The notes: generated by a model not told the origin, from the sequence alone. 64,000 nucleotides of DNA from Escherichia coli (GCA_009729775.1 GCA_009729775.1_4081.1), one strand, 5' to 3'; positions 1,985 through 62,709 are shown, counted from the stretch's first letter. Program-made: numbers and translations.

Positions 1985-2413
1985 TTAGTTAATAATAAAG
2001 GTAATTTCAGGATTCATTTCCGAAACTGCATTGCGTTTACTTCTATCCCATAGTATTCTGTTATTATACAAAGAAGAATCACATACGACAAGTAAGCAAT
2101 TTCTTAATCTACTTACAGTACTTTGATTATTTAAATCAGTTTCTGAGATAAAAAATACATTTTCAGGAACTACTAAAGGAATAGATTTATCAAAAAACAA
2201 AACTACAATAGGTCTTGTTGTATGAACTGATTTAACAAAATCCAAAATACTATTATAAAAATTAGTTTCTTTAGTAATTACTGACGGATCTTTAATTCTT
2301 TTCAAATATTGCTGTGGTAATTGATGTTCGTCTTTTATCTGAAACTCAAAATATTCTTTGAATAACATTTGTGTTAATTCAGATTTATCGGATATTTTCG
2401 TTGTGTTACTCAT
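1985..2413 (-). CDS. hypothetical protein (142 aa)
   Basis: ORF track. Confidence 0.6.
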   Translation of the reverse strand: MSNTTKISDKSELTQMLFKEYFEFQIKDEHQLPQQYLKRIKDPSVITKETNFYNSILDFVKSVHTTRPIVVLFFDKSIPLVVPENVFFISETDLNNQSTVSRLRNCLLVVCDSSLYNNRILWDRSKRNAVSEMNPEITFIIN

Positions 2414-2496
2414 TCACTTCGTTCTCTCGTAACTCAAGAAGTCACTGCGTTTACTTCGTAAACTAGTTCCTTCTGAAAATGATAATGTACTTTAAA

Positions 2497-3068
2497 AACT
2501 TGACGGGATTTGTTGAGGACTATTACATCCCCCCGCAGGGGAATGAAGGTAATAAAAAAGAGACAATTAAGTCTCTCTTGACGATGATGGCATCGGATAT
2601 TATCGAATTGCGAATTTCTCAAATTTTGGACGGATCTTTCTTGTACCAAAATTTAGAGAGCGAAAGCGGGTTGCTCGGTTTCTCTCTATCGCAGTCATAT
2701 GCAACGGTCGCTGGTCTTTTCATCAACAGCACTCAGTACTAACTCTATTCGATCAAAGTAGTACTTGTTCTCAAATTTTGGACGCAACTTTCTTGTAAAA
2801 ATTGCGTCCGCTATCCTTGAACTCCCTTAGCAAATCTGGTAAGGTGCGAACCTTATACATCTATCTAGGAACTCTCTGTATGCTTATCGGAGTTCTTTAT
2901 ACAGCCGTGTCGCCGTGATTCGTGGTCTTACATCGTGTTTGTTTAAATGCCAGTACTCTAACAGGTTTCTTCTGCTGTTCGCTACAACGGTAAAGCTCAT
3001 CTATCCTTTACATTTTCAAGAGAAGTAGGTTCTCAGTGTCCATTTTTCAATGTCCGTTGTCATTTTCT
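2497..3068 (-). ncRNA. candidate large structured noncoding RNA, copy A (paralog of 58627..59162); identity unknown
   Basis: ~690 nt gap without credible ORF in an otherwise gene-dense genome; local GC ~50% vs ~33% background; blocks conserved with copy B (CCCCGCAGGGG, GAAAGCGGGTTGCTC.GTTTCTCTCTATCGC, GCAACGGTCG..GGTCTT, TTTGGACGCAACT, GGTAAGGTGCGA.CCTTATA, AGGAACTCTCT...GGAGTTCTTTATACAGCCG, TGCTGTTCG); conserved stems with variable loops; TGATATAAT extended -10 on minus strand at 3075-3083; strand and ends approximate. Confidence 0.45.
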
Positions 3069-3074
3069 ATATAC

Positions 3075-3103
3075 ATTATATCATTGGAACATATAATGTC
3101 CCA
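3075..3103 (-). promoter_or_regulatory. extended -10 promoter (TGaTATAAT) with upstream imperfect palindrome TGGGACAT-N3-ATGTTCCA, reading into ncRNA copy A
   Basis: plus-strand attatatca at 3075-3083 = TGATATAAT on minus; palindrome 3085-3103 resembles the one at 28306-28326. Confidence 0.4.
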
Positions 3104-3580
3104 TTACATGTATACTTTTTTTAAATCCTTAGAACAACGATCAAAAATTGTGTTTATGAATTCAACATCTTCGATAATATTCGAATCGTTAGCAACATTT
3201 TCATTTCTTGTCGTGTTCCTATATGTGTGTTCAGGATGATTGTATACCACCTTGACTACATTATTTAGGTCTATAAAATTTGACGTTTTTTGTGTATAAG
3301 AAGCCTGAAGCTTGATGAGTTTACCATCATTCTCAAGATTGGTTTTATGAATTAGTTCTTCAATGCCAGTTAAATGGCTATAGCTATCTTTTTCTTTTAC
3401 AAAAGTAATAGTAACAAGAACTGCTTTCTCATCTCCCATATCGGAAATGTTTTTTACAGCACTGATAATTTCTAAGTTTGAAAAATCTAATTCTTTAAGC
3501 ATTTTACAAATATTTCCACAAAGTTCGATAAGTGATAATTTCTTCTCTGGTAACAGAAACTTCATTGCACTTAACACCAT
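3104..3580 (-). CDS. hypothetical protein (up to 158 aa; true start probably internal)
   Basis: ORF track; 5' end overlaps 3504..3860 by 77 nt so a downstream start is likely. Confidence 0.5.
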   Translation of the reverse strand: MVLSAMKFLLPEKKLSLIELCGNICKMLKELDFSNLEIISAVKNISDMGDEKAVLVTITFVKEKDSYSHLTGIEELIHKTNLENDGKLIKLQASYTQKTSNFIDLNNVVKVVYNHPEHTYRNTTRNENVANDSNIIEDVEFINTIFDRCSKDLKKVYM

Positions 3581-3860
3581 CAGTTTCAGTACTGAATGGT
3601 TGTACTGGTCTATCTTCTGTTAAACCTCGTTCATAAGTACAATGATAAAACTTATTTGTGCTCATGTCAAGAAATACGAGATCAAATTCTTCAGTCCACC
3701 TTCTGTTCCCTTTGCTTTCATTGTAGATGATTTTATATTTTACATCTGGTTTAAAAGTTTCAGTACTGTCATCCCATGCACCATAGTCAGTATATTCATC
3801 ATTTTCATCTAACTCTGCTAGATGCCACATTAATTGTGGTAAAAAGATTTTAGATTTCAT
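3504..3860 (-). CDS. hypothetical protein (118 aa)
   Basis: ORF track; ATG 3858-3860 preceded by GGAG RBS. Confidence 0.6.
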   Translation of the reverse strand: MKSKIFLPQLMWHLAELDENDEYTDYGAWDDSTETFKPDVKYKIIYNESKGNRRWTEEFDLVFLDMSTNKFYHCTYERGLTEDRPVQPFSTETDGVKCNEVSVTREEIITYRTLWKYL

Positions 3861-3871
3861 TTATTTTCTCC

Positions 3872-3899
3872 AAAAAAAAGGACTTGAATACTCAAGTCC
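3872..3899 (-). terminator. intrinsic terminator-like hairpin (GGACTTGA/TCAAGTCC) plus U8 on minus strand
   Basis: perfect 8-bp stem, A8 run on plus 3872-3879; immediately downstream of stop of 3913..4524. Confidence 0.5.
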
Positions 3900-3912
3900 C
3901 TATAATATCATA

Positions 3913-4524
3913 TCAATCATGTTTATTCAATTTCTTCTGTTCTTTTTTCAAAGCTTTCATATGACGACCAAACTCTCGAACATGCCATAGATGATCAGTT
4001 TCCCATAATTCTTGACGTAACCTACGTTCTTCTAGTAGTTTCGACTTGTCAATGTTATTTTTCTTTTTTTGTACATTAAAGAAATTATTCATATGTTCTT
4101 GGAGAAGATTACGACCTTTAACTTTCTCAAGAAACTCATCAACTGTTTCAGTTTTATTCGAACGTAGTTGATTACATCTGGAGCACATAGTATTAAAGTT
4201 TGACTCTAAATCAGGTCCACCCTTAGATGCCAGATGATTATGGTCAACTGTCATTAAAACTTCATAAAGACCACATACAGCATATACATTTAAATGTGGT
4301 TTACCATATACTGGATCAGAACATAATGAACGTTCAATGCGTACTTCAGTAGCTTCAATCCCACATGCCACGCATTTTGGATTCTTAATAAATGTAAGAA
4401 CTTTTTGTGGGAAATATCGAAAAGTAATACCATTTAAAGTGTAGCGTTTCATCTTAGTACTTCGTTGATTTAATTCGTCAAGAAGTGATAATTTGGTCGT
4501 ATAGTAAACATGATATTTGTTCAT
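3913..4524 (-). CDS. HNH endonuclease (homing-endonuclease-like), ~203 aa
   Basis: motif CVACG...TVDHNHLASKGGPDLESNFNTMCSRCNQLRS (HNH with flanking Cys pairs); start moved to ATG 4522-4524 (AAGGA RBS) to avoid 44-nt overlap. Confidence 0.7.
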   Translation of the reverse strand: MNKYHVYYTTKLSLLDELNQRSTKMKRYTLNGITFRYFPQKVLTFIKNPKCVACGIEATEVRIERSLCSDPVYGKPHLNVYAVCGLYEVLMTVDHNHLASKGGPDLESNFNTMCSRCNQLRSNKTETVDEFLEKVKGRNLLQEHMNNFFNVQKKKNNIDKSKLLEERRLRQELWETDHLWHVREFGRHMKALKKEQKKLNKHD

Positions 4525-27290: not shown

Positions 27291-27848
27291 TTAGCTCCCT
27301 TTGTATTGATGTTTATGTTTTGTACTGTATTTCCAGCCAGTACTATGTCTTGTTCTGATATCGTCCCAATACGATGGTAATGAACGCATCTTACGTCTTC
27401 CACGTATATCAGGTTCCCCCTCATCCTTCAGTACTGCACAAGCCATACGACGCTCTTGTTGAGTCTTAGGACGCTTGTATCGGGAGTGGTTATGTTTGTA
27501 CATATACGAACGCTTATGACGCCATTCCGTATCACGAGCTTTACGTTTATGTTCCCAGTACTCATTATAGAGTATCATGTATTCACCCATAAGTAAATCA
27601 GGAGATACAAGTAATCCTTTTTCAGTACAAAGATAATAACCCACAAACTTTTCTGGAAACATTTCGTAATAGAAACGGTTCTTCCAAAATGTTTCACGAT
27701 TCTTTTTGTTGAATTCTGCTAAATCAAATTTCATCTTACTGTGGAAACGATCTATCCCTTGATGGTCAGCAATGTATTGAAGTAGATCGTCTACAATCTC
27801 AACTTTACCAGAATCGTGATACAACGTAAATGTTTGGTCAAAAAACAT
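27291..27848 (-). CDS. hypothetical protein with strongly basic C-terminus (185 aa)
   Basis: ORF track; K/R/H-rich tail. Confidence 0.55.
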   Translation of the reverse strand: MFFDQTFTLYHDSGKVEIVDDLLQYIADHQGIDRFHSKMKFDLAEFNKKNRETFWKNRFYYEMFPEKFVGYYLCTEKGLLVSPDLLMGEYMILYNEYWEHKRKARDTEWRHKRSYMYKHNHSRYKRPKTQQERRMACAVLKDEGEPDIRGRRKMRSLPSYWDDIRTRHSTGWKYSTKHKHQYKGS

Positions 27849-27944
27849 ATGAAATCTCCTTTAAGTTAAAATAACCTAATGGAAAGTCATTCTTCCTTTA
27901 ATACATGTTCTCATGATTTGTTCCTTTTGTCAAGATATAGATAT

Positions 27945-27970
27945 AAAAAATCCCTGCCAAAAGACAGGGA
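27945..27970 (-). terminator. intrinsic terminator (TCCCTG/CAGGGA) plus U6 ending the 33.5-28.0 kb transcription unit
   Basis: perfect 6-bp stem, 8-nt loop, A6 on plus 27945-27950. Confidence 0.5.
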
Positions 27971-27990
27971 CGAAAAACTGAAATAACACA

Positions 27991-28055
27991 TGGAGTTCTT
28001 TTTAATTTAATAAAAAGTATTATTATTCTTATAAAAGTATTTATTAAGAACTCCA
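27991..28055. repeat. 10-bp perfect inverted repeat (TGGAGTTCTT / AAGAACTCCA) separated by ~45 nt of AT-rich DNA
   Basis: seen directly in the sequence between gene 28075..28263 and the terminator. Confidence 0.4.
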
Positions 28056-28074
28056 CAATATTGCTTCAAATGAA

Positions 28075-28263
28075 TCAAAAACCTTTCTGAGCTACTAGTT
28101 CACGGTACTGTGCACGAGTTAGTACACCTTGCTTGCGTAGAGCTTGTAGACCGGATAGGGTTTCACTCTTACGTTGTTCGTACATACGTTGTTCTTTGGA
28201 TTGAATAACTTTCTCTTTCTTAACTTTTGCTACTGGTTCTTGTTTCTTAGGTTGTTTAGCCAT
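28075..28263 (-). CDS. small basic protein with SHOCT-like C-terminal motif (62 aa)
   Basis: AAGGAG RBS; MAKQPKKQEPVAKVKKEK... then LSGLQALRKQGVLTRAQYRELVAQ; own promoter/operator upstream; GC ~40%. Confidence 0.55.
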   Translation of the reverse strand: MAKQPKKQEPVAKVKKEKVIQSKEQRMYEQRKSETLSGLQALRKQGVLTRAQYRELVAQKGF

Positions 28264-28294
28264 TTTATATCTCCTTCTGTATTATGATAACAAC

Positions 28295-28326
28295 ATTATA
28301 TCATGTATGGGACATAATGTCCCATA
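28295..28326 (-). promoter_or_regulatory. extended -10 promoter (TGaTATAAT) overlapped upstream by a 21-bp palindrome TATGGGACA-N3-TGTCCCATA (candidate operator)
   Basis: plus attatatca 28295-28303; palindrome 28306-28326; RBS and ATG of 28075..28263 follow. Confidence 0.5.
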
Positions 28327-28331
28327 CAATA

Positions 28332-29771
28332 TTACATATTTTCTTCAGCAAATTCAGCCAGTGGTGAACGAACAACACCTTCTAGTTCGATGACACGACA
28401 ACCTGCCCAGTCTTTAAACTTCTCAGTTACATATGTCAAACCACTGTTAACAGGACTAATAAACTTACTGTCAATCTGACTCAAGTTACCCATAATTACT
28501 ACTTTACAGTTTAACCCTGCTCGTGTCAAGATGGTTTTTGCTTGTGCAGGTGTAATGTTTTGGAATTCATCAACTACTAGAATAGTGTTGGTGAATGAAC
28601 GTCCACGTACAAAGTTTAGTGCTTTAAATTGAATAACATTACGTTTCATAATCTCTTCAATACTACCTTGTGGATTGGCATCATCTTTATGAAGAAACTC
28701 TAACGCATCAATCGCGGCTCCACAGAATGGAATCACTTTTTCTGCTTCTGAACCTGGCAAGAAACCAATATCTTCAAACTGTGAGTCTTGAGTTTTAGAG
28801 AAGATGATTCGGTCGTATTTACGTTTTTCCAGTACTAATTCTAATGCAGTAGCAATTGTAATTAGTGTTTTACCAGTACCAGCAGAACCTAGCAGTACTG
28901 TTAGATGTACATCAGGATCGAGAATACTGTTGATGGCGAGTGCTTGTTGGATATTCTTTGCTTTAATATCCCATACTTTAGCACGTAAAGCCACTGATTG
29001 TCCAATGTCTTGGAATACCAAAATATCTTCTGGTGTTAGTGTTCCATCATCTTCCTCAATTGCTGATTGTCCTTCGTACACAAATAATACGTCAGCATCA
29101 TCATATAGATAATCACCGATGCATAGATTTTGTGGAAGCAGATGTTCAATCAAGCTTTTAGAAATGTAATGATACAAACGACGACCAACTTGTTCGGATT
29201 GAATATTAGTATTGGTTAAGTTGCTGTATACTTCCCAAAAATTGATTTCCAGATGGTGTTGACCAATGTGAATCAAATCACTATCACCAATAACAATATC
29301 ATGGCGATAATCTTGTACCTCGACACCATAACTTAGTGCTTTGATACGCATGTTGATATCACGAGTTACCAGTACTGATTCTGTTGCTAAAGCTACCAGA
29401 ATGATTTTATCATCAGGTACAGTACTTTTGAGAAGGGTTTGAACTTTCTCTTCTGTACCTTTAGTACGAATTAGTGCCTCAGCTTCTTCGTTTGTAATAA
29501 CAAACAATTTGCTATCAGGATTCATATTGGTATGAACATCAGCAATATTAACACCAGTACTACTAATCTCGTCATGTGATGCATCTGCAATAATTGCTTC
29601 AATGTTACGAATAGCAACACGAGCATCGCGTGAAACATCTACATTACGACTCTTAATCGAATCTAATTCTTCCAGTACTGTAAATGGTAGAATGATTGCA
29701 GCACCATCAAAAGCAATAGATGCATTAGGGTCAGATAGTAGTACGTTTGTGTCAATTGTATATTTTTTCAT
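28332..29771 (-). CDS. phoH: PhoH2-type protein: N-terminal PIN domain fused to PhoH-like ATPase (479 aa)
   Basis: PIN signature (YTIDTNVLL, ILPFTVLEELD); Walker A VLLGSAGTGKT and PhoH-like C-terminal half. Confidence 0.85.
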   Translation of the reverse strand: MKKYTIDTNVLLSDPNASIAFDGAAIILPFTVLEELDSIKSRNVDVSRDARVAIRNIEAIIADASHDEISSTGVNIADVHTNMNPDSKLFVITNEEAEALIRTKGTEEKVQTLLKSTVPDDKIILVALATESVLVTRDINMRIKALSYGVEVQDYRHDIVIGDSDLIHIGQHHLEINFWEVYSNLTNTNIQSEQVGRRLYHYISKSLIEHLLPQNLCIGDYLYDDADVLFVYEGQSAIEEDDGTLTPEDILVFQDIGQSVALRAKVWDIKAKNIQQALAINSILDPDVHLTVLLGSAGTGKTLITIATALELVLEKRKYDRIIFSKTQDSQFEDIGFLPGSEAEKVIPFCGAAIDALEFLHKDDANPQGSIEEIMKRNVIQFKALNFVRGRSFTNTILVVDEFQNITPAQAKTILTRAGLNCKVVIMGNLSQIDSKFISPVNSGLTYVTEKFKDWAGCRVIELEGVVRSPLAEFAEENM

Positions 29772-29831
29772 AAAACATCCTTGAGTTATGAGTACATCCT
29801 TGTACTCGACTAATGTTATTGACTCGGATTA

Positions 29832-30134
29832 TTACATATTTGGTTCGTATTCAACATAGCAACGTGAACCTCGAACCTTTTCTTCCCAGCACTCCTGGTA
29901 AACAAGTTGACCAATTGAAACTGGTTCTCTTGATAGTCCATTACGTACTTCACCACTTTGGGTTTTATACATGAATGAACATTTGGACTCGCTACATTGT
30001 CCTAAACTAACAACTTCTGCGGTATTGTAGTGAATGTTGGTACGCTTAGTGTTCTCGTGATACTGTCCGAACCAAAGAACTCCTGCACCTAACAGAACAG
30101 TACAAATAAGACTTTTGATGTGTGTTTGAATCAT
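29832..30134 (-). CDS. small secreted or membrane-anchored Cys-containing protein (100 aa)
   Basis: N-terminal hydrophobic segment LICTVLLGAGVLWF; five Cys. Confidence 0.5.
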   Translation of the reverse strand: MIQTHIKSLICTVLLGAGVLWFGQYHENTKRTNIHYNTAEVVSLGQCSESKCSFMYKTQSGEVRNGLSREPVSIGQLVYQECWEEKVRGSRCYVEYEPNM

Positions 30135-37576: not shown

Positions 37577-37640
37577 TATTAATTTCCTCTATTGTTTCAA
37601 TGTTGTGAGTATTATATCACTAAGATTTAAAATGTCCAAA

Positions 37641-38442: not shown

Positions 38443-39246
38443 TTAAATTTCAAATACAAATTTAGGATTGTAATCAAAATTCTCACAAGCTCCACTGTAT
38501 GATTCATAGCCTCGTGGATTACAAATGATACGTGTCTTACCAATGTGGTAGTCAAAGCTACTATGAACATGACCATGAATCCAAACATCAGCACCCAAAT
38601 CTTCAATGTACTGATCCATATCGGAACAGTAACAACCATTCAGTGAATCATTTTTATATTTTGGTGAAACACTTTGATAACTTGGTGCGTGATGGGTAAC
38701 CACGATGACCTTGAAATCATTATCATGCATAAAGCGAACTGTGTCAATAGAATTTTTGATAAATTGTTTATCTTTGTGATGCATAAACTCAGTATCATCT
38801 GGTGTCAGTTTCTTACGCCAAGGCTCTGATGTTGTTCCATGACGGATATGTTTGTAATCGTTCATCTTCAGACGAGCATCAAACTTCGTTAAAGAATTAC
38901 CTTTATCGAAGTCTGTCCACAGAGTACTACCAACAAGCAGTACTCCATCCAGCCATACAAATTTGTTTTGCAAAAAGATGAAATTTGGAATCTCATCTTG
39001 CATATCAGACAGTACTTTATGCGTTTTGTGGATATTGGAACCATAGTATTCGTGATTACCGGGAACCAGTACTACATTCTTAAACTGCTTACATAGTGAT
39101 TCGATGCCAGTACGGTAACGACTGCGTTTAACTTCATCGAAGTCCCCAGCAATAATCAGTACTACATCACTGTAATCACCGCTATGGAGGTAATCAGTTC
39201 CACCGTGTACGTCAGATGTTACAACAAATTTCATAATTACCCCCAA
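38443..39246 (-). CDS. calcineurin-like metallophosphoesterase (267 aa)
   Basis: TSDVHGG, GDF, GNHEYY, VTHHAP, GHVH motifs. Confidence 0.7.
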   Translation of the reverse strand: MGVIMKFVVTSDVHGGTDYLHSGDYSDVVLIIAGDFDEVKRSRYRTGIESLCKQFKNVVLVPGNHEYYGSNIHKTHKVLSDMQDEIPNFIFLQNKFVWLDGVLLVGSTLWTDFDKGNSLTKFDARLKMNDYKHIRHGTTSEPWRKKLTPDDTEFMHHKDKQFIKNSIDTVRFMHDNDFKVIVVTHHAPSYQSVSPKYKNDSLNGCYCSDMDQYIEDLGADVWIHGHVHSSFDYHIGKTRIICNPRGYESYSGACENFDYNPKFVFEI

Positions 39247-45314: not shown

Positions 45315-45323
45315 ATTATATCA
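45315..45323 (-). promoter_or_regulatory. extended -10 element TGATATAAT
   Basis: ~32 nt upstream of ATG of 44957..45283. Confidence 0.35.
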
Positions 45324-45340
45324 CCGAATTCTGATACGTC

Positions 45341-45646
45341 TCATGATATTCGCATTTCATCTATATATAATGAACATGATTCAGAATTATCGTCTAAACT
45401 TAAACCTAAATCGACCATTAAACCACAATGCGTTCCCCAGAATTTTTTTATGTATAGTTTTTTGCTACTATTACCTAAATCATAAACATATTCATTTTTA
45501 AACATACTTTTTAATTCTTCACATATACATTTTACTATCTTCATTAATTGATTATGATATTCGTATGGTATCCCATCAAGTTCGTTAATTATTAATGCAA
45601 AACCATTATCATAGTACTTTAGCTTATTGAATGTTTGTATATCCAT
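45341..45646 (-). CDS. hypothetical protein (101 aa)
   Basis: ORF track. Confidence 0.5.
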   Translation of the reverse strand: MDIQTFNKLKYYDNGFALIINELDGIPYEYHNQLMKIVKCICEELKSMFKNEYVYDLGNSSKKLYIKKFWGTHCGLMVDLGLSLDDNSESCSLYIDEMRIS

Positions 45647-53053: not shown

Positions 53054-53102
53054 TCCTTGTGTTAATTATTGTTCCTTACCCATTATTATATCATGAATTA
53101 AA

Positions 53103-53399
53103 CTATTGTCCCTGTTTATAGCAATAAAGATTCTCTAATTTAAAGTCCACTAGGTCACATTCAGAACGTACTCGATTCTTGTTCCAGAATAAAATACGAA
53201 TCCTTTCATAATCACGATAAACACTAATAATGCTTCGGTGCTTGGATTTGTAGTACTCCTGTACTATCCCCAGATACACAGTCCTCAATAAAGACTTAGT
53301 TGGATAGGGCATATTCTGTGCTGACGTGATATTGTAAATCATCTTCATTGTTTCAGCAATAAGTACTTCATTTGTTCTCATTGTAATCCTTACATACAC
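53103..53399 (-). CDS. hypothetical protein (98 aa; track start is GTG, ATG at 53379-53381 more likely)
   Basis: ORF track plus hand check of start codon. Confidence 0.5.
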   Translation of the reverse strand: MYVRITMRTNEVLIAETMKMIYNITSAQNMPYPTKSLLRTVYLGIVQEYYKSKHRSIISVYRDYERIRILFWNKNRVRSECDLVDFKLENLYCYKQGQ

Positions 53400-58592: not shown

Positions 58593-58626
58593 GTCTAATT
58601 CTACAAGTACTATTTTCTTTTAATTA

Positions 58627-59162
58627 ATATTGACGGGGTTTGCTTGAGCATATTTCATCCCCCCGCAGGGGAAAGAACAAAAAAATTTGACGCTGGTGGC
58701 CTTCACATAGTTCATATCACGAATTCTCTTACGAGACGAAAGCGGGTTGCTCTGTTTCTCTCTATCGCGGTTCTTGTAGCAACGGTCGTCGGTCTTAAAC
58801 ATCCCGACACATAATACAAATACCATATGACCAGTACTTGTATTTGATTTCACAAAATTTGGACGCAACTATATTGTATAATTCCGACCGCATATTTCTT
58901 ATGAAATCTCCCTTAGATAATTGGTAAGGTGCGATCCTTATATGTCTATCGAGGAACTCTCTTTATCCTATTGGAGTTCTTTATACAGCCGCATTGCCGT
59001 GAGTGGTTCAAACTATGCCATCATCTAACGGGTTTCATCTGCTGTTCGTACTGAAAGGACTACTCATCTACCCTCTACATTTTCGAGTGGATTAGGCTTT
59101 TAATCATTTCCTTATGGGAACCTTTCAGGATTAAAAAAGGTGACTAACATATTATGTTGTCA
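58627..59162 (-). ncRNA. candidate large structured noncoding RNA, copy B (paralog of 2497..3068); identity unknown
   Basis: ~600 nt without credible ORF; GC-enriched; same conserved blocks and stems as copy A; TGATATAAT on minus strand at 59169-59177 immediately upstream; strand and ends approximate. Confidence 0.45.
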
Positions 59163-59166
59163 CCTT
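59131..59166 (-). terminator. strong hairpin (AAGGTGACTAACAT/ATGTTGTCACCTT) plus U6; overlaps the transcription start of the promoter at 59169-59177
   Basis: ~13-bp stem with A6 on plus 59133-59138; downstream of stop of 59195..60082. Confidence 0.5.
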
Positions 59167-59168
59167 AT

Positions 59169-59177
59169 ATTATATCA
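59169..59177 (-). promoter_or_regulatory. extended -10 promoter element TGATATAAT reading into ncRNA copy B
   Basis: plus attatatca 59169-59177. Confidence 0.4.
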
Positions 59178-59194
59178 TTAACTTATCATTTGTC

Positions 59195-60082
59195 TCAGTT
59201 ATATTCGGTTTTTTCTGTGAAATTTGTTAGTATATCAACACTAAAACTTCGAATAACCTCAATCTTGCTTGGCATGAAACGGTGTTTATTTTTAATATAC
59301 AACTCATCATCTTCAATAAAAGATGTAAAAATGAATGCCATATCTTCACGTGGAATTTGTAAAATATCACACATTTCATTTGCCGATGCTACTGGTGAAT
59401 CATTATAGTACTGAGAGTATGCACTAGATTGGCGACCGATTATAATAGAATTTCTGATTAGAAAATTACTACAGTACTGAAAATCTTTGTAGTACTTTTC
59501 AATAATGTACGGCATAAGTGCTTCTTTCACGTCTTCATAACCATTAGTACTATCAATTGCTATACAGTAATCTTCACGTTCTTTTTTCTCATGATGGTAA
59601 TCATAAACATACTCAAAGAATGAATTTTTATTTAATGAATCATTTAAACCAACTGACCCACTATAGTATGATTTTCTATCATTCATTCGATCATCTGGGC
59701 ATGATGCATACATAGAAGTGTCATGTGATGATGTACCAATATAAATTTTCTTAGTAATATGATTATACGCTATGTAATCATAATCTTGAACTCCAGTCAG
59801 CATTAACTGGAACATTAAATCATCAGGAACATCAATTAACGGGTACTCAAACTTCGAATATCTACTGCGGCAGAAGTTCTTTTCAAATGCTCGGTATGCG
59901 ATAAAATCTTTTAGATTTTTACAAGATTCATGTTCATGAGCACTACTGCTACGTACATTGACATTAGTCGATGTGCAATATCCATCCGAATCTTCGGTGA
60001 AGTTACCAGCATAATCCTTATTGTAGTCAACGATTAGATAAAGTTTCATACATCTCCAGACAAAAAAAGGACGAGATAACAA
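59195..60082 (-). CDS. hypothetical protein (295 aa)
   Basis: ORF track. Confidence 0.55.
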   Translation of the reverse strand: MLSRPFFVWRCMKLYLIVDYNKDYAGNFTEDSDGYCTSTNVNVRSSSAHEHESCKNLKDFIAYRAFEKNFCRSRYSKFEYPLIDVPDDLMFQLMLTGVQDYDYIAYNHITKKIYIGTSSHDTSMYASCPDDRMNDRKSYYSGSVGLNDSLNKNSFFEYVYDYHHEKKEREDYCIAIDSTNGYEDVKEALMPYIIEKYYKDFQYCSNFLIRNSIIIGRQSSAYSQYYNDSPVASANEMCDILQIPREDMAFIFTSFIEDDELYIKNKHRFMPSKIEVIRSFSVDILTNFTEKTEYN

Positions 60083-60842: not shown

Positions 60843-60913
60843 CTATATCTCCGTTATCAAAAAAAGATGTGAACATTATATCACAAGAATCTAATATGTT
60901 CACATTATTTTCA

Positions 60914-62235: not shown

Positions 62236-62709
62236 TTACTCCAAACTGGGATCTTTAACTGTTAGACTTTCTATGTCACTCGCATAAAGAACTACATTGG
62301 ATTGATTTTCAGACACTTTAAAGTCGTGATAACTGTCTTTGACGATAAAATTATCTAATATAAACCCTTTACTACAGCACATCATAATTTTATCATCTTT
62401 GATTGTGTAGGTGTTTTTCTTTTTACGTACTTCAGATTGTGGCGTAATACTATCGTTATTACGAATAACACAATCAATATATTGTTCATTTGTACTCATA
62501 GGCATACCCATGATAAACGAGTTTTCAGTACTGATTGTTAGTATAAAAACGTTAGTATTTGGGTTGTGAAAAAAATCATGCATTGTCTTGCTACACAAAA
62601 ATAGACATTGAATAATGTCCTTCACATTAAACATTATATCATGAACTTTGAATGCGTCCAACTCTAAAATGTCATCAATTTTCCCATTTTCAACAGTTTT
62701 AATCTCCAT
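62236..62709 (-). CDS. hypothetical protein (157 aa)
   Basis: ORF track. Confidence 0.55.
   Translation of the reverse strand: MEIKTVENGKIDDILELDAFKVHDIMFNVKDIIQCLFLCSKTMHDFFHNPNTNVFILTISTENSFIMGMPMSTNEQYIDCVIRNNDSITPQSEVRKKKNTYTIKDDKIMMCCSKGFILDNFIVKDSYHDFKVSENQSNVVLYASDIESLTVKDPSLE

Follow-up and report, generated by a model that had tools for sequence, protein, structure and literature searches.

The window analysed here, a stretch of 64,000 nucleotides, carries at two minus-strand loci an inverted repeat with a GGGACA arm next to the extended -10 element TGATATAAT, which raises the question of whether such a repeat is an operator, a component of the promoter, or a structure formed in RNA. 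Site A (minus strand, 3103..3075) reads TGGGACAT-TAT-ATGTTCCA-A-TGATATAAT, and site B (minus strand, 28328..28295) reads TGTATGGGACA-TTA-TGTCCCATACA-TGATATAAT. Both elements had been pointed out in a sequence-only reading, and their positions and strand were confirmed. Moreover, a search of the window for GGGACA-N{3,5}-TGTYCC returned three matches at two loci, A and B, versus 0.02 expected from shuffles.

By megablast, the window belongs to a Rak2-like jumbo coliphage (Asteriusvirus) and shows approximately 99% identity to phages G17, PBECO4 and 121Q. The region around site A (2400-4400) is 99.5% identical to G17 and several other Asteriusvirus isolates and 99.3% identical to PBECO4, and that around site B (27800-29900) is 99.9% identical to 121Q. 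The minus strand is the coding strand of the window and holds nearly all long ORFs, and the phage encodes an RpoD-like sigma factor with regions r2, r3 and r4 (195592-196557 in PBECO4). The complete PBECO4 genome (348,113 bp) was the basis of all genome-wide counts. The records of G17, UE-S1 and GAP32 have annotated terminators and no annotated promoters at sites A and B, and none are annotated in the stretches of Asteriusvirus records examined. On transcripts and promoters of Asteriusvirus and Rak2-like phages, the Sharanji and RaK2 papers offer no data, and the RNA-seq paper on PA5oct, a distant relative, reported only TTGAC/TATAATA promoters. Judging from sequence comparison, we consider it likely that both sites belong to a phage-wide promoter class, that the palindrome at site B is an RNA hairpin of the PhoH gene end which has been compacted into the promoter, and that the repeat at site A is weak and lineage-specific. 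The features concerned are listed in the table.

Table. Features at sites A and B and other members of the promoter class (coordinates are those of the window)
Feature	Position	Strand	Basis or remark
Site A, component parts	stop TAA 3106..3104; TGGGACAT 3103..3096; TAT; ATGTTCCA 3092..3085; A; TGATATAAT 3083..3075	-	
Extended -10 TGATATAAT, promoter A	3075..3083	-	sequence, consensus scan; TGnTATAAT kept in 7 lineages
-35-position box GGGACA, promoter A	3097..3102	-	13 nt to TG, 16 nt to TATAAT
Imperfect inverted repeat TGGGACAT-TAT-ATGTTCCA	3085..3103	-	8 pairs including one G·U (sense RNA), -8.0 kcal/mol
Upstream gene DUF7325, 132 aa	3104..3502	-	stop codon 3104-3106 abuts site A repeat
Site A spacer, window lineage			TTATATGTTCCAA
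Site A spacer, 121Q and WPEC3			TAACACATCCTAG
Site A spacer, ph0011			ATAATTGAACCTG
Site A spacer, A4			ATACTTTATATTG
ncRNA copy A	2480..3068 (approximate limits)	-	no long ORF; predicted from promoter A
Extended -10 TGATATAAT, promoter B	28295..28303	-	also in ph0011, UE-S1, WPEC5, TH47
-35-position box GGGACA, promoter B	28318..28323	-	14 nt to TG, 17 nt to TATAAT
Perfect 11+3+11 hairpin TGTATGGGACA-TTA-TGTCCCATACA	28304..28328	-	about -16 kcal/mol as RNA (MFE -16.5)
PIN-PhoH gene	28332..29771	-	Pfam PIN_4 and PhoH; annotation in relatives
Small basic ORF, 62 aa	28075..28263	-	SD GAAGGAG, ATG at 28263; downstream of promoter B
Canonical terminator closing the predicted one-gene unit of promoter B	27950..27971	-	consensus scan
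Class member, relaxed box TGGACA-N13-TGATATAAT	37611..37638	-	upstream of ClpP-like gene
Class member GAGACG-N13-TGATATAAT	45315..45342	-	intergenic
Class member GGGACA-N13-TGATATAAT	53085..53112	-	intergenic, without inverted repeat
Class member GAGACA-N13-TGATATAAT	59169..59196	-	predicted to drive ncRNA copy B
Class promoter TGAACA-N13-TGATATAAT inside inverted repeat ATGTGAACAT...ATGTTCACAT	60859..60905	-	-10 at 60875-60883; then T7
Class member, relaxed box TGGACG-N13-TGATATAAT	62633..62660	-	

The motif TGnTATAAT occurs 86 times on the coding strand of PBECO4 and 21 times on the other strand. A GRRACR box was located 13 nt from the TG at 16 of the 86 coding-strand sites and 14 nt from it at two more, and all other offsets from 0 to 40 combined gave four sites; on the other strand, no GRRACR was found at offsets 12-15. 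The strict pattern GRRACR-N13-TGNTATAAT had five matches in the window versus 0.00 expected. Coding-strand TGnTATAAT sites preceded by a box at a constant distance were found in the window at 62633, 60875, 59169, 53085, 49199, 45315, 43065, 37611, 28295 and 3075, the box variants being GGGACA, GAGACA, GGAACA, TGGACA and TGAACA. With the preceding base included (TGRRACR), the box is TGGGACA at both A and B, and a consensus scan described both sites as sigma-70-like with GGGACA as the first hexamer, a TG extension and a spacer of 16 (site A) or 17 (site B). Members of the class precede tRNA, primase and exonuclease genes, all four ncRNA paralogues of PBECO4 and a gene annotated as an RNA polymerase sigma factor, in whose product no Pfam domain was found. 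Thus, the proposal that the two sites represent a phage-specific promoter class is supported: GRRACR stands at 13 (rarely 14) nt at 18 PBECO4 sites, in agreement with Promoter 1 of phage CBB. The further suggestion that this class coordinates these two loci in particular does not hold, as it also serves tRNA, DNA-metabolism and sigma-factor genes and four ncRNA genes.

An inverted copy of the box (TGTYCC in the spacer) was present in only two of the 18 strict members in PBECO4, namely sites A and B, and the inverted repeat does not belong to the class. The left arm of each dyad is the box, so A and B necessarily resemble each other, and what had been described as their shared sequence is the box and its complement. 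The two sites had also been said to share spacing, which they do not: the hexamers are arranged as GGGACA-N5-TGTTCC at A versus GGGACA-N3-TGTCCC at B, and the distance from box to TG is 13 nt versus 14 nt.

The putative layout of the class is an A-rich stretch, tGRRACR, 13 nt (rarely 14) and TGnTATAAT, in which GGGACA would act as the -35-position box. The perfect extended -10 element probably lets the host RNA polymerase initiate, at predicted starts near 3068 for promoter A and 28288 for promoter B, and the box may be read by sigma-70 or by the RpoD-like sigma of the phage. A hairpin promoter of the N4 type was also considered and set aside; such a promoter presumes an RNA polymerase encoded by the phage, and the geometry of the sites is of the sigma-70 type.

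At site B, the order from 28334 to 28295 on the minus strand is stop TAA, TAT, TGTATGGGACA, TTA, TGTCCCATACA and TGATATAAT, so the hairpin begins 3 nt past the PhoH stop codon (28334..28332) and abuts the -10 element, with the box GGGACA of promoter B lying within its 5' arm. A palindrome had been reported here as 9+3+9; it is present, and its real extent is 11+3+11. When spacers were shuffled, a fold of this strength was obtained with P<0.0005 in each of four lineages. The distance from box to TG is 14 nt in the window, ph0011 and UE-S1 and 13 nt in WPEC5 and TH47. The hairpin has one of the attributes of an intrinsic terminator, a G+C-containing stem-loop directly 3' of a gene. In the consensus scan it was not terminator-like, having no U-tract (tail CATGATATAA), and the repeat at site A, which also lacks a T tail (tail ATGATATAAT), was likewise not terminator-like. 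The hairpins at both sites fail the standard intrinsic-terminator test because they have no U-tract, and ARNOLD called neither palindrome in G17. A standard intrinsic terminator in the strict sense was therefore rejected for both sites.

The same position was then compared across relatives. A hairpin was found 3-12 nt past the PhoH stop in all 12 isolate genomes and 7-12 nt past it in all 15 IMG/VR loci, which had been retrieved with the PhoH C-terminus; in at least nine of these 15 loci, a run of five or more T directly follows the stem. The stems are unrelated across lineages (GGGGATAC, GGGGAAC, GGGGGCA, GGAGTGCT, GCGTCCAT and GTGTTCAT). Among close relatives, the stem of site B is kept and the loop varies (TTA, TAA, ATA, GTACT, ATTC): in ph0011, PBECO4 and UE-S1 the loop alone has changed (ATA, TAA and GTACT), and WPEC5 and TH47 have ATGTGTGGGAC-ATTC-GTCCCATACAT, in which G·U has replaced one A-U pair, an additional A-U pair closes the stem and the arms are 1 nt closer. 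In Turkey5 and A4, a consensus TTGACA-N17-TATAAT promoter precedes the same small gene and hairpins stand astride its -10 element (GCGTCCAT...ATGGACGC and GTGTTCAT...ATGAACAC), with two compensatory C-G to T-A changes between them. JNE01 has GGAGTGCT...AGCACTCC after PhoH. G-rich hairpins occupy this position in 7t3, K64-1, GAP32 and CBB; T-runs follow them in 7t3, GAP32 and CBB, and the tail in K64-1 is not T-rich. Canonical terminators with T-runs were found after PhoH in most distant relatives. Since position is conserved and stem sequence is variable, these comparisons point to an RNA or single-strand structure rather than a sequence-specific protein site; a hairpin fixed in position with changing sequence is the signature that such a structure would leave. 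In addition, the departures from symmetry, at site A, in WPEC5/TH47 and in the PBECO4 terminator at 246710, are all G·T, which argues for the RNA level, as G·U pairing exists in the sense transcript only.

Beyond site B lies the 62-aa ORF. It had been labelled SHOCT-like, a label for which Pfam gives no support, as no family was matched by the protein at E<=0.01. The terminator 3' of this gene is also annotated in G17. JNE01 is without the gene, and the small ORF after PhoH in GAP32 and CBB has a different start sequence (MKLSFY...).

From the statistics of the promoter class, the conservation patterns and the folding energies described above, we infer how initiation, sigma usage, and termination or stabilisation might be arranged at site B. 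Transcripts reading out of PhoH would form the 11-bp RNA hairpin, which appears to be the positional counterpart of the intrinsic terminator found after PhoH in Rak2-like phages and probably marks the 3' end of the PIN-PhoH transcript. In the lineage of the window, the hairpin may have been compacted into the next promoter, its 5' arm doubling as the -35 box, and with such an arm the 3' arm is necessarily TGTCCC. Transcripts arriving from upstream would carry the whole hairpin and be terminated, attenuated or 3'-stabilised there, whereas those from promoter B would start about 7 nt downstream of the -10 element (near 28288), without the hairpin, and yield a one-gene message for the 62-aa protein that ends at the terminator 27971..27950. 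The logic would be that of a composite terminator/promoter cassette of the PeSL (promoter-early stem-loop) type. The sequence-only reading had named an RNA-level terminator of the upstream gene as an outcome that would speak against its operator, and the comparison among relatives appears to bring site B close to this. The weakest point of this explanation is the missing U-tract: termination at site B may be of low efficiency, and the role of the hairpin may be limited to stabilising 3' ends or providing a processing site. Two further features count against our explanation, namely that a protein-binding site could likewise take the form of a flawless 25-bp DNA palindrome whose centre varies, and that the box-to-TG distance at site B is 14 nt rather than 13 nt.

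The main alternative is that the palindrome is an operator of a dimeric phage or host regulator, as had been proposed; the bound protein would repress or activate both promoters together. The overlap of the perfect dyad at B with the -35 box, the half-site GGGACAT common to both sites, and the conserved stems with variable centres in close relatives would all suit such a protein. However, the half-sites are separated by N5 at A versus N3 at B, and the arms in WPEC5/TH47 are 1 bp closer (GGGAC-N4-GTCCC versus N5 in the window); the asymmetries are G·T, which is a wobble pair in sense-strand RNA only; and the repeat accompanies just two of 18 class promoters. Moreover, 121Q, WPEC3, ph0011 and A4 keep the promoter at A without the right half-site, and at B unrelated hairpins and plain terminators take the place of the repeat in relatives. 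The -35 box and its complement account for the sequence that the two sites share. We therefore regard a dimeric operator as unlikely.

Another palindrome, the octamer CAGTACTG, is strongly over-represented in both the window and PBECO4, with 42 copies in the window (e.g. 305-312, 3587-3594, 28893-28900 and 62526-62533) versus 0.66 expected. PBECO4 contains 191 copies versus 3.4 expected (56-fold), the next-best 8-mer palindrome being 8.8-fold enriched, and AGTACT occurs 891 times versus 118 expected. Copies are found about every 1.3 kb, mostly within genes, and have T-rich 5' and A-rich 3' flanks. They fall in two reading phases (..S-T.. and ..V-L..), which points to selection on the DNA. Nothing was found on this motif in the literature.

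At site A, the evidence for a functional repeat is of a different order. In the orthologues from 121Q, ph0011, WPEC3, Turkey5, JNE01 and A4, the box and TGnTATAAT are kept and the 13-nt spacers are unrelated, and the repeat is not present in relatives of about 90% identity. The segment from the stop codon to the -10 element folds with -8.0 kcal/mol in the window lineage versus -1.9 to -4.2 kcal/mol in the others, and spacer shuffling gave P=0.008 for the window lineage and P=0.2-0.6 for other lineages. A conserved hairpin at site A was rejected, as folding and spacer shuffling on five lineages yielded one in the window lineage only. The repeat is thus confined to this lineage and, with about 18 promoters taken into account, does not clearly exceed chance: the P value of 0.008 is not significant after correction for the approximately 18 promoters of the class (about 0.14), and -8.0 kcal/mol falls within the 4.7% tail of random 36-nt segments from PBECO4. 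It is probably fortuitous or a weak attenuator confined to one sublineage. In terms of the cassette suggested for site B, it would either have arisen by chance or be a young, weak form of that arrangement, and it would be dispensable.

These values at site A would fit a reading in which both repeats arose by chance where AT-rich spacers adjoin a fixed box, have no function, and the promoters alone matter. Extended to site B, such an explanation is quite unlikely: it is opposed by the 11 perfect pairs (P<0.0005), by a stem that has been maintained through loop and wobble changes in four lineages, and by a hairpin at the PhoH end that is universal among the relatives examined.

At seven of its 13 positions, the spacer of promoter A (3084-3096, minus strand) in the window departs from that of 121Q, and ph0011 and A4 have yet other versions. 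This spacer evolves much faster than its flanks, given that the region is about 90% identical and that the box and the -10 element are unchanged. It was also observed that the last codons of DUF7325 (GTATACATGTA, 3107-3117) can pair with the -10/+1 region of promoter A (TATAATGTATAT, 3066-3080) on the minus strand. All seven lineages are predicted to form an equivalent outer A/U-rich helix at site A, which may be a composition effect given the TA-rich sequences of low complexity.

The transcript predicted from promoter A is an ncRNA of about 600 nt. Two copies are present on the minus strand of the window (about 2480-3068 and about 58620-59160) and four in PBECO4 (near 38548, 94126, 195483 and 305392). 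A class promoter precedes each of the four PBECO4 paralogues, and the repeat occurs at copy A only. Nucleotide-level conservation of the ncRNA extends to Mimasvirus (CBB, GAP32), Eneladusvirus (fHe-Yen9-04), Erwinia phages and Serratia phage BF, where the homologous stretches bear no annotation; the RNA contains a conserved CCCCTGCGGGGGG hairpin. No Rfam family was matched by the ncRNA or the hairpins, either in the whole window at the gathering threshold or in 2400-3110 at E<=1. The homologues in CBB, GAP32 and Yersinia phage fHe-Yen9-04 are preceded by TGAAACG-N13-TGnTATAAT.

At ncRNA copy B (59133-59196, minus strand) and in homologues from three other genera, a strong hairpin followed by T6-7 was observed 3-6 nt past the -10 element (extracted loci: CBB 225-300, GAP32 190-265 and Yen9-04 240-315). 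With a start at the usual distance, transcripts from promoters of this type would begin inside or at the foot of the terminator. The hairpin at copy B may end upstream transcripts only, or it may also attenuate synthesis of the ncRNA itself.

Combinations of promoter and hairpin are not restricted to site B. Of the 86 extended -10 sites in PBECO4, seven have a hairpin of -12 kcal/mol or stronger immediately adjacent, versus 0.9% of random segments; they comprise four copies of GGGTTGACttcgGTCAGCCC-TTTT-TGCTATAAT, site B, and the sites at 274228 and 23857. The four copies carry the -35 hexamer TTGACT in the 5' arm and a T-run between the stem and the -10 element. A third GGGACA-AAT-TGTTCC stem in PBECO4 (ATATCGGGACA-AAT-TGTTCCGATAT) is a canonical terminator with T10 and is followed by a class promoter for a topoisomerase gene, which indicates that a GGGACA-type stem serves elsewhere as a textbook terminator. 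In the window, besides the class promoter enclosed in an inverted repeat (table), the promoter at 59169 is immediately followed by a hairpin and T6 (59166..59133, minus strand). Gene content 3' of PhoH varies at the cassette, JNE01 lacking the small gene and Turkey5/A4 having a TTGACA-type promoter with a different hairpin.

The module with four copies in PBECO4 is 35 nt long (AAGGGTTGACttcgGTCAGCCCTTTT-TGCTATAAT) and is located at 174098, 175888, 176812 and 187101; it is a canonical UUCG-loop terminator whose 5' arm carries the -35 hexamer of the next promoter. A second stem-loop family, outside the window, consists of about 20 copies of the hairpin GGGGAGAAatgRTTCTCCCC between small early-region ORFs at 133-152 kb; these lack a T-tail, and an RBS-like sequence (..AGGA/GAGG) comes after every copy.

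The changes of gene content exactly at the cassette (JNE01; Turkey5, A4) and the demonstrated recombination of PeSLs would also fit a hairpin that acts as DNA, for example by extruding a cruciform or by favouring recombination that shuffles gene cassettes, yet this reading is very unlikely, as mismatches confined to G·U and the T-runs seen in relatives indicate sense RNA, and recombination would be a by-product of the cassette and no alternative to a transcriptional role. There is also a slim chance that the hairpin-in-promoter at the PhoH site is a regulatory switch, either because a phage protein or cruciform extrusion at the 25-bp dyad gates this class promoter or because the hairpin, having no U-tract, terminates only with a phage factor; in the latter case, factor-dependent termination would couple read-through from PhoH to expression of the small basic protein.

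The value of the promoter class and hairpin cassette described here lies mainly in annotation. A testable promoter class, GRRACR-N13-TGnTATAAT, is provided for Asteriusvirus, with at least 18 sites per genome, and compact PeSL-like promoter/hairpin cassettes help to delimit transcription units in these jumbo phages, including those of the four ncRNAs. No new mechanism is revealed. In the relatives CBB and GAP32, this class had been predicted before, and the kind of cassette is known from PeSLs. The results also caution against taking dyads of this sort for operators.

Among known systems, intrinsic terminators resemble the hairpin at site B in having a stable stem-loop directly 3' of a stop codon, and textbook terminators are found at the orthologous position; they differ in that a U-tract is lacking at A and B, where the next promoter's -10 element forms the tail. 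Middle promoters of phage T4 combine a MotA box at -30 with a sigma-70 -10 element and, like the present class, replace the -35 hexamer by a phage-specific box set at constant spacing from a strong -10 element. The box sequence and spacing are different, and the present phage encodes its own RpoD-like sigma with regions 2-4. The closest match for the class itself is the group of 'divergent RpoD-like' promoters, with TGAAACG as their -35 region, that Buttimer et al. 2017 (PMC5259590) described in CBB and also in GAP32. Promoter 1 of CBB (Table S6) comprises 29-nt sites, TGAAACG-N13-TGnTATAAT, predicted in silico (PMC5259590). It shares with the present class a 7-nt box, 13 nt and TGnTATAAT, the geometry of site A being identical; both also lie on the coding strand and precede genes for DNA metabolism and other non-structural functions. 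The box is TGGGACA/TGAGACA/TGGAACA here versus TGAAACG in CBB, whose spacers are A/T-rich and without inverted repeats, and both classes are defined only in silico.

For the cassette, the closest known counterparts are the PeSLs of the T4-type phages RB49, phi1, PST and nt-1 (PMC2839356; PMC4122927). A PeSL cassette consists of an upstream stop codon, an AT-rich stretch, sigma-70-like -35/-10 boxes, and an SD and ATG (PMC2839356; PMC4122927), with the stem-loop lying in the interval that separates the two boxes or overlapping one of them (Arbiol et al. 2010, PMC2839356; Comeau et al. 2014, PMC4122927). PeSL stems frequently contain G-runs, tolerate G-T pairs and often have no clear T-run; several copies occur per genome and have been shown to recombine, and one PeSL stem-loop was found to terminate transcription and reduced reporter expression as strongly as rrnB T1 (PMC2839356; PMC4122927). 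The present sites differ in occurring in a Rak2-like jumbo phage rather than in Tequatrovirus-type phages, in having GRRACR-N13-TGnTATAAT instead of the consensus TTGACA, and in that site A is predicted to drive an ncRNA and PeSLs drive an ORFan. The layouts of site B and of the sites at 60875 and 59169 in the window are nevertheless alike, and site B corresponds to the 'over the -35 / between the boxes' subclass. Its intergenic bounds, from the PhoH stop to the SD/ATG, are also those of a PeSL cassette, and site A similarly follows a stop codon and then leads into the ncRNA. Likewise, a stem-loop positioned at sigma-70-like -35/-10 boxes is common to PeSLs and both sites, being stable at B, where its 5' arm contains the -35 box, and weak at A.
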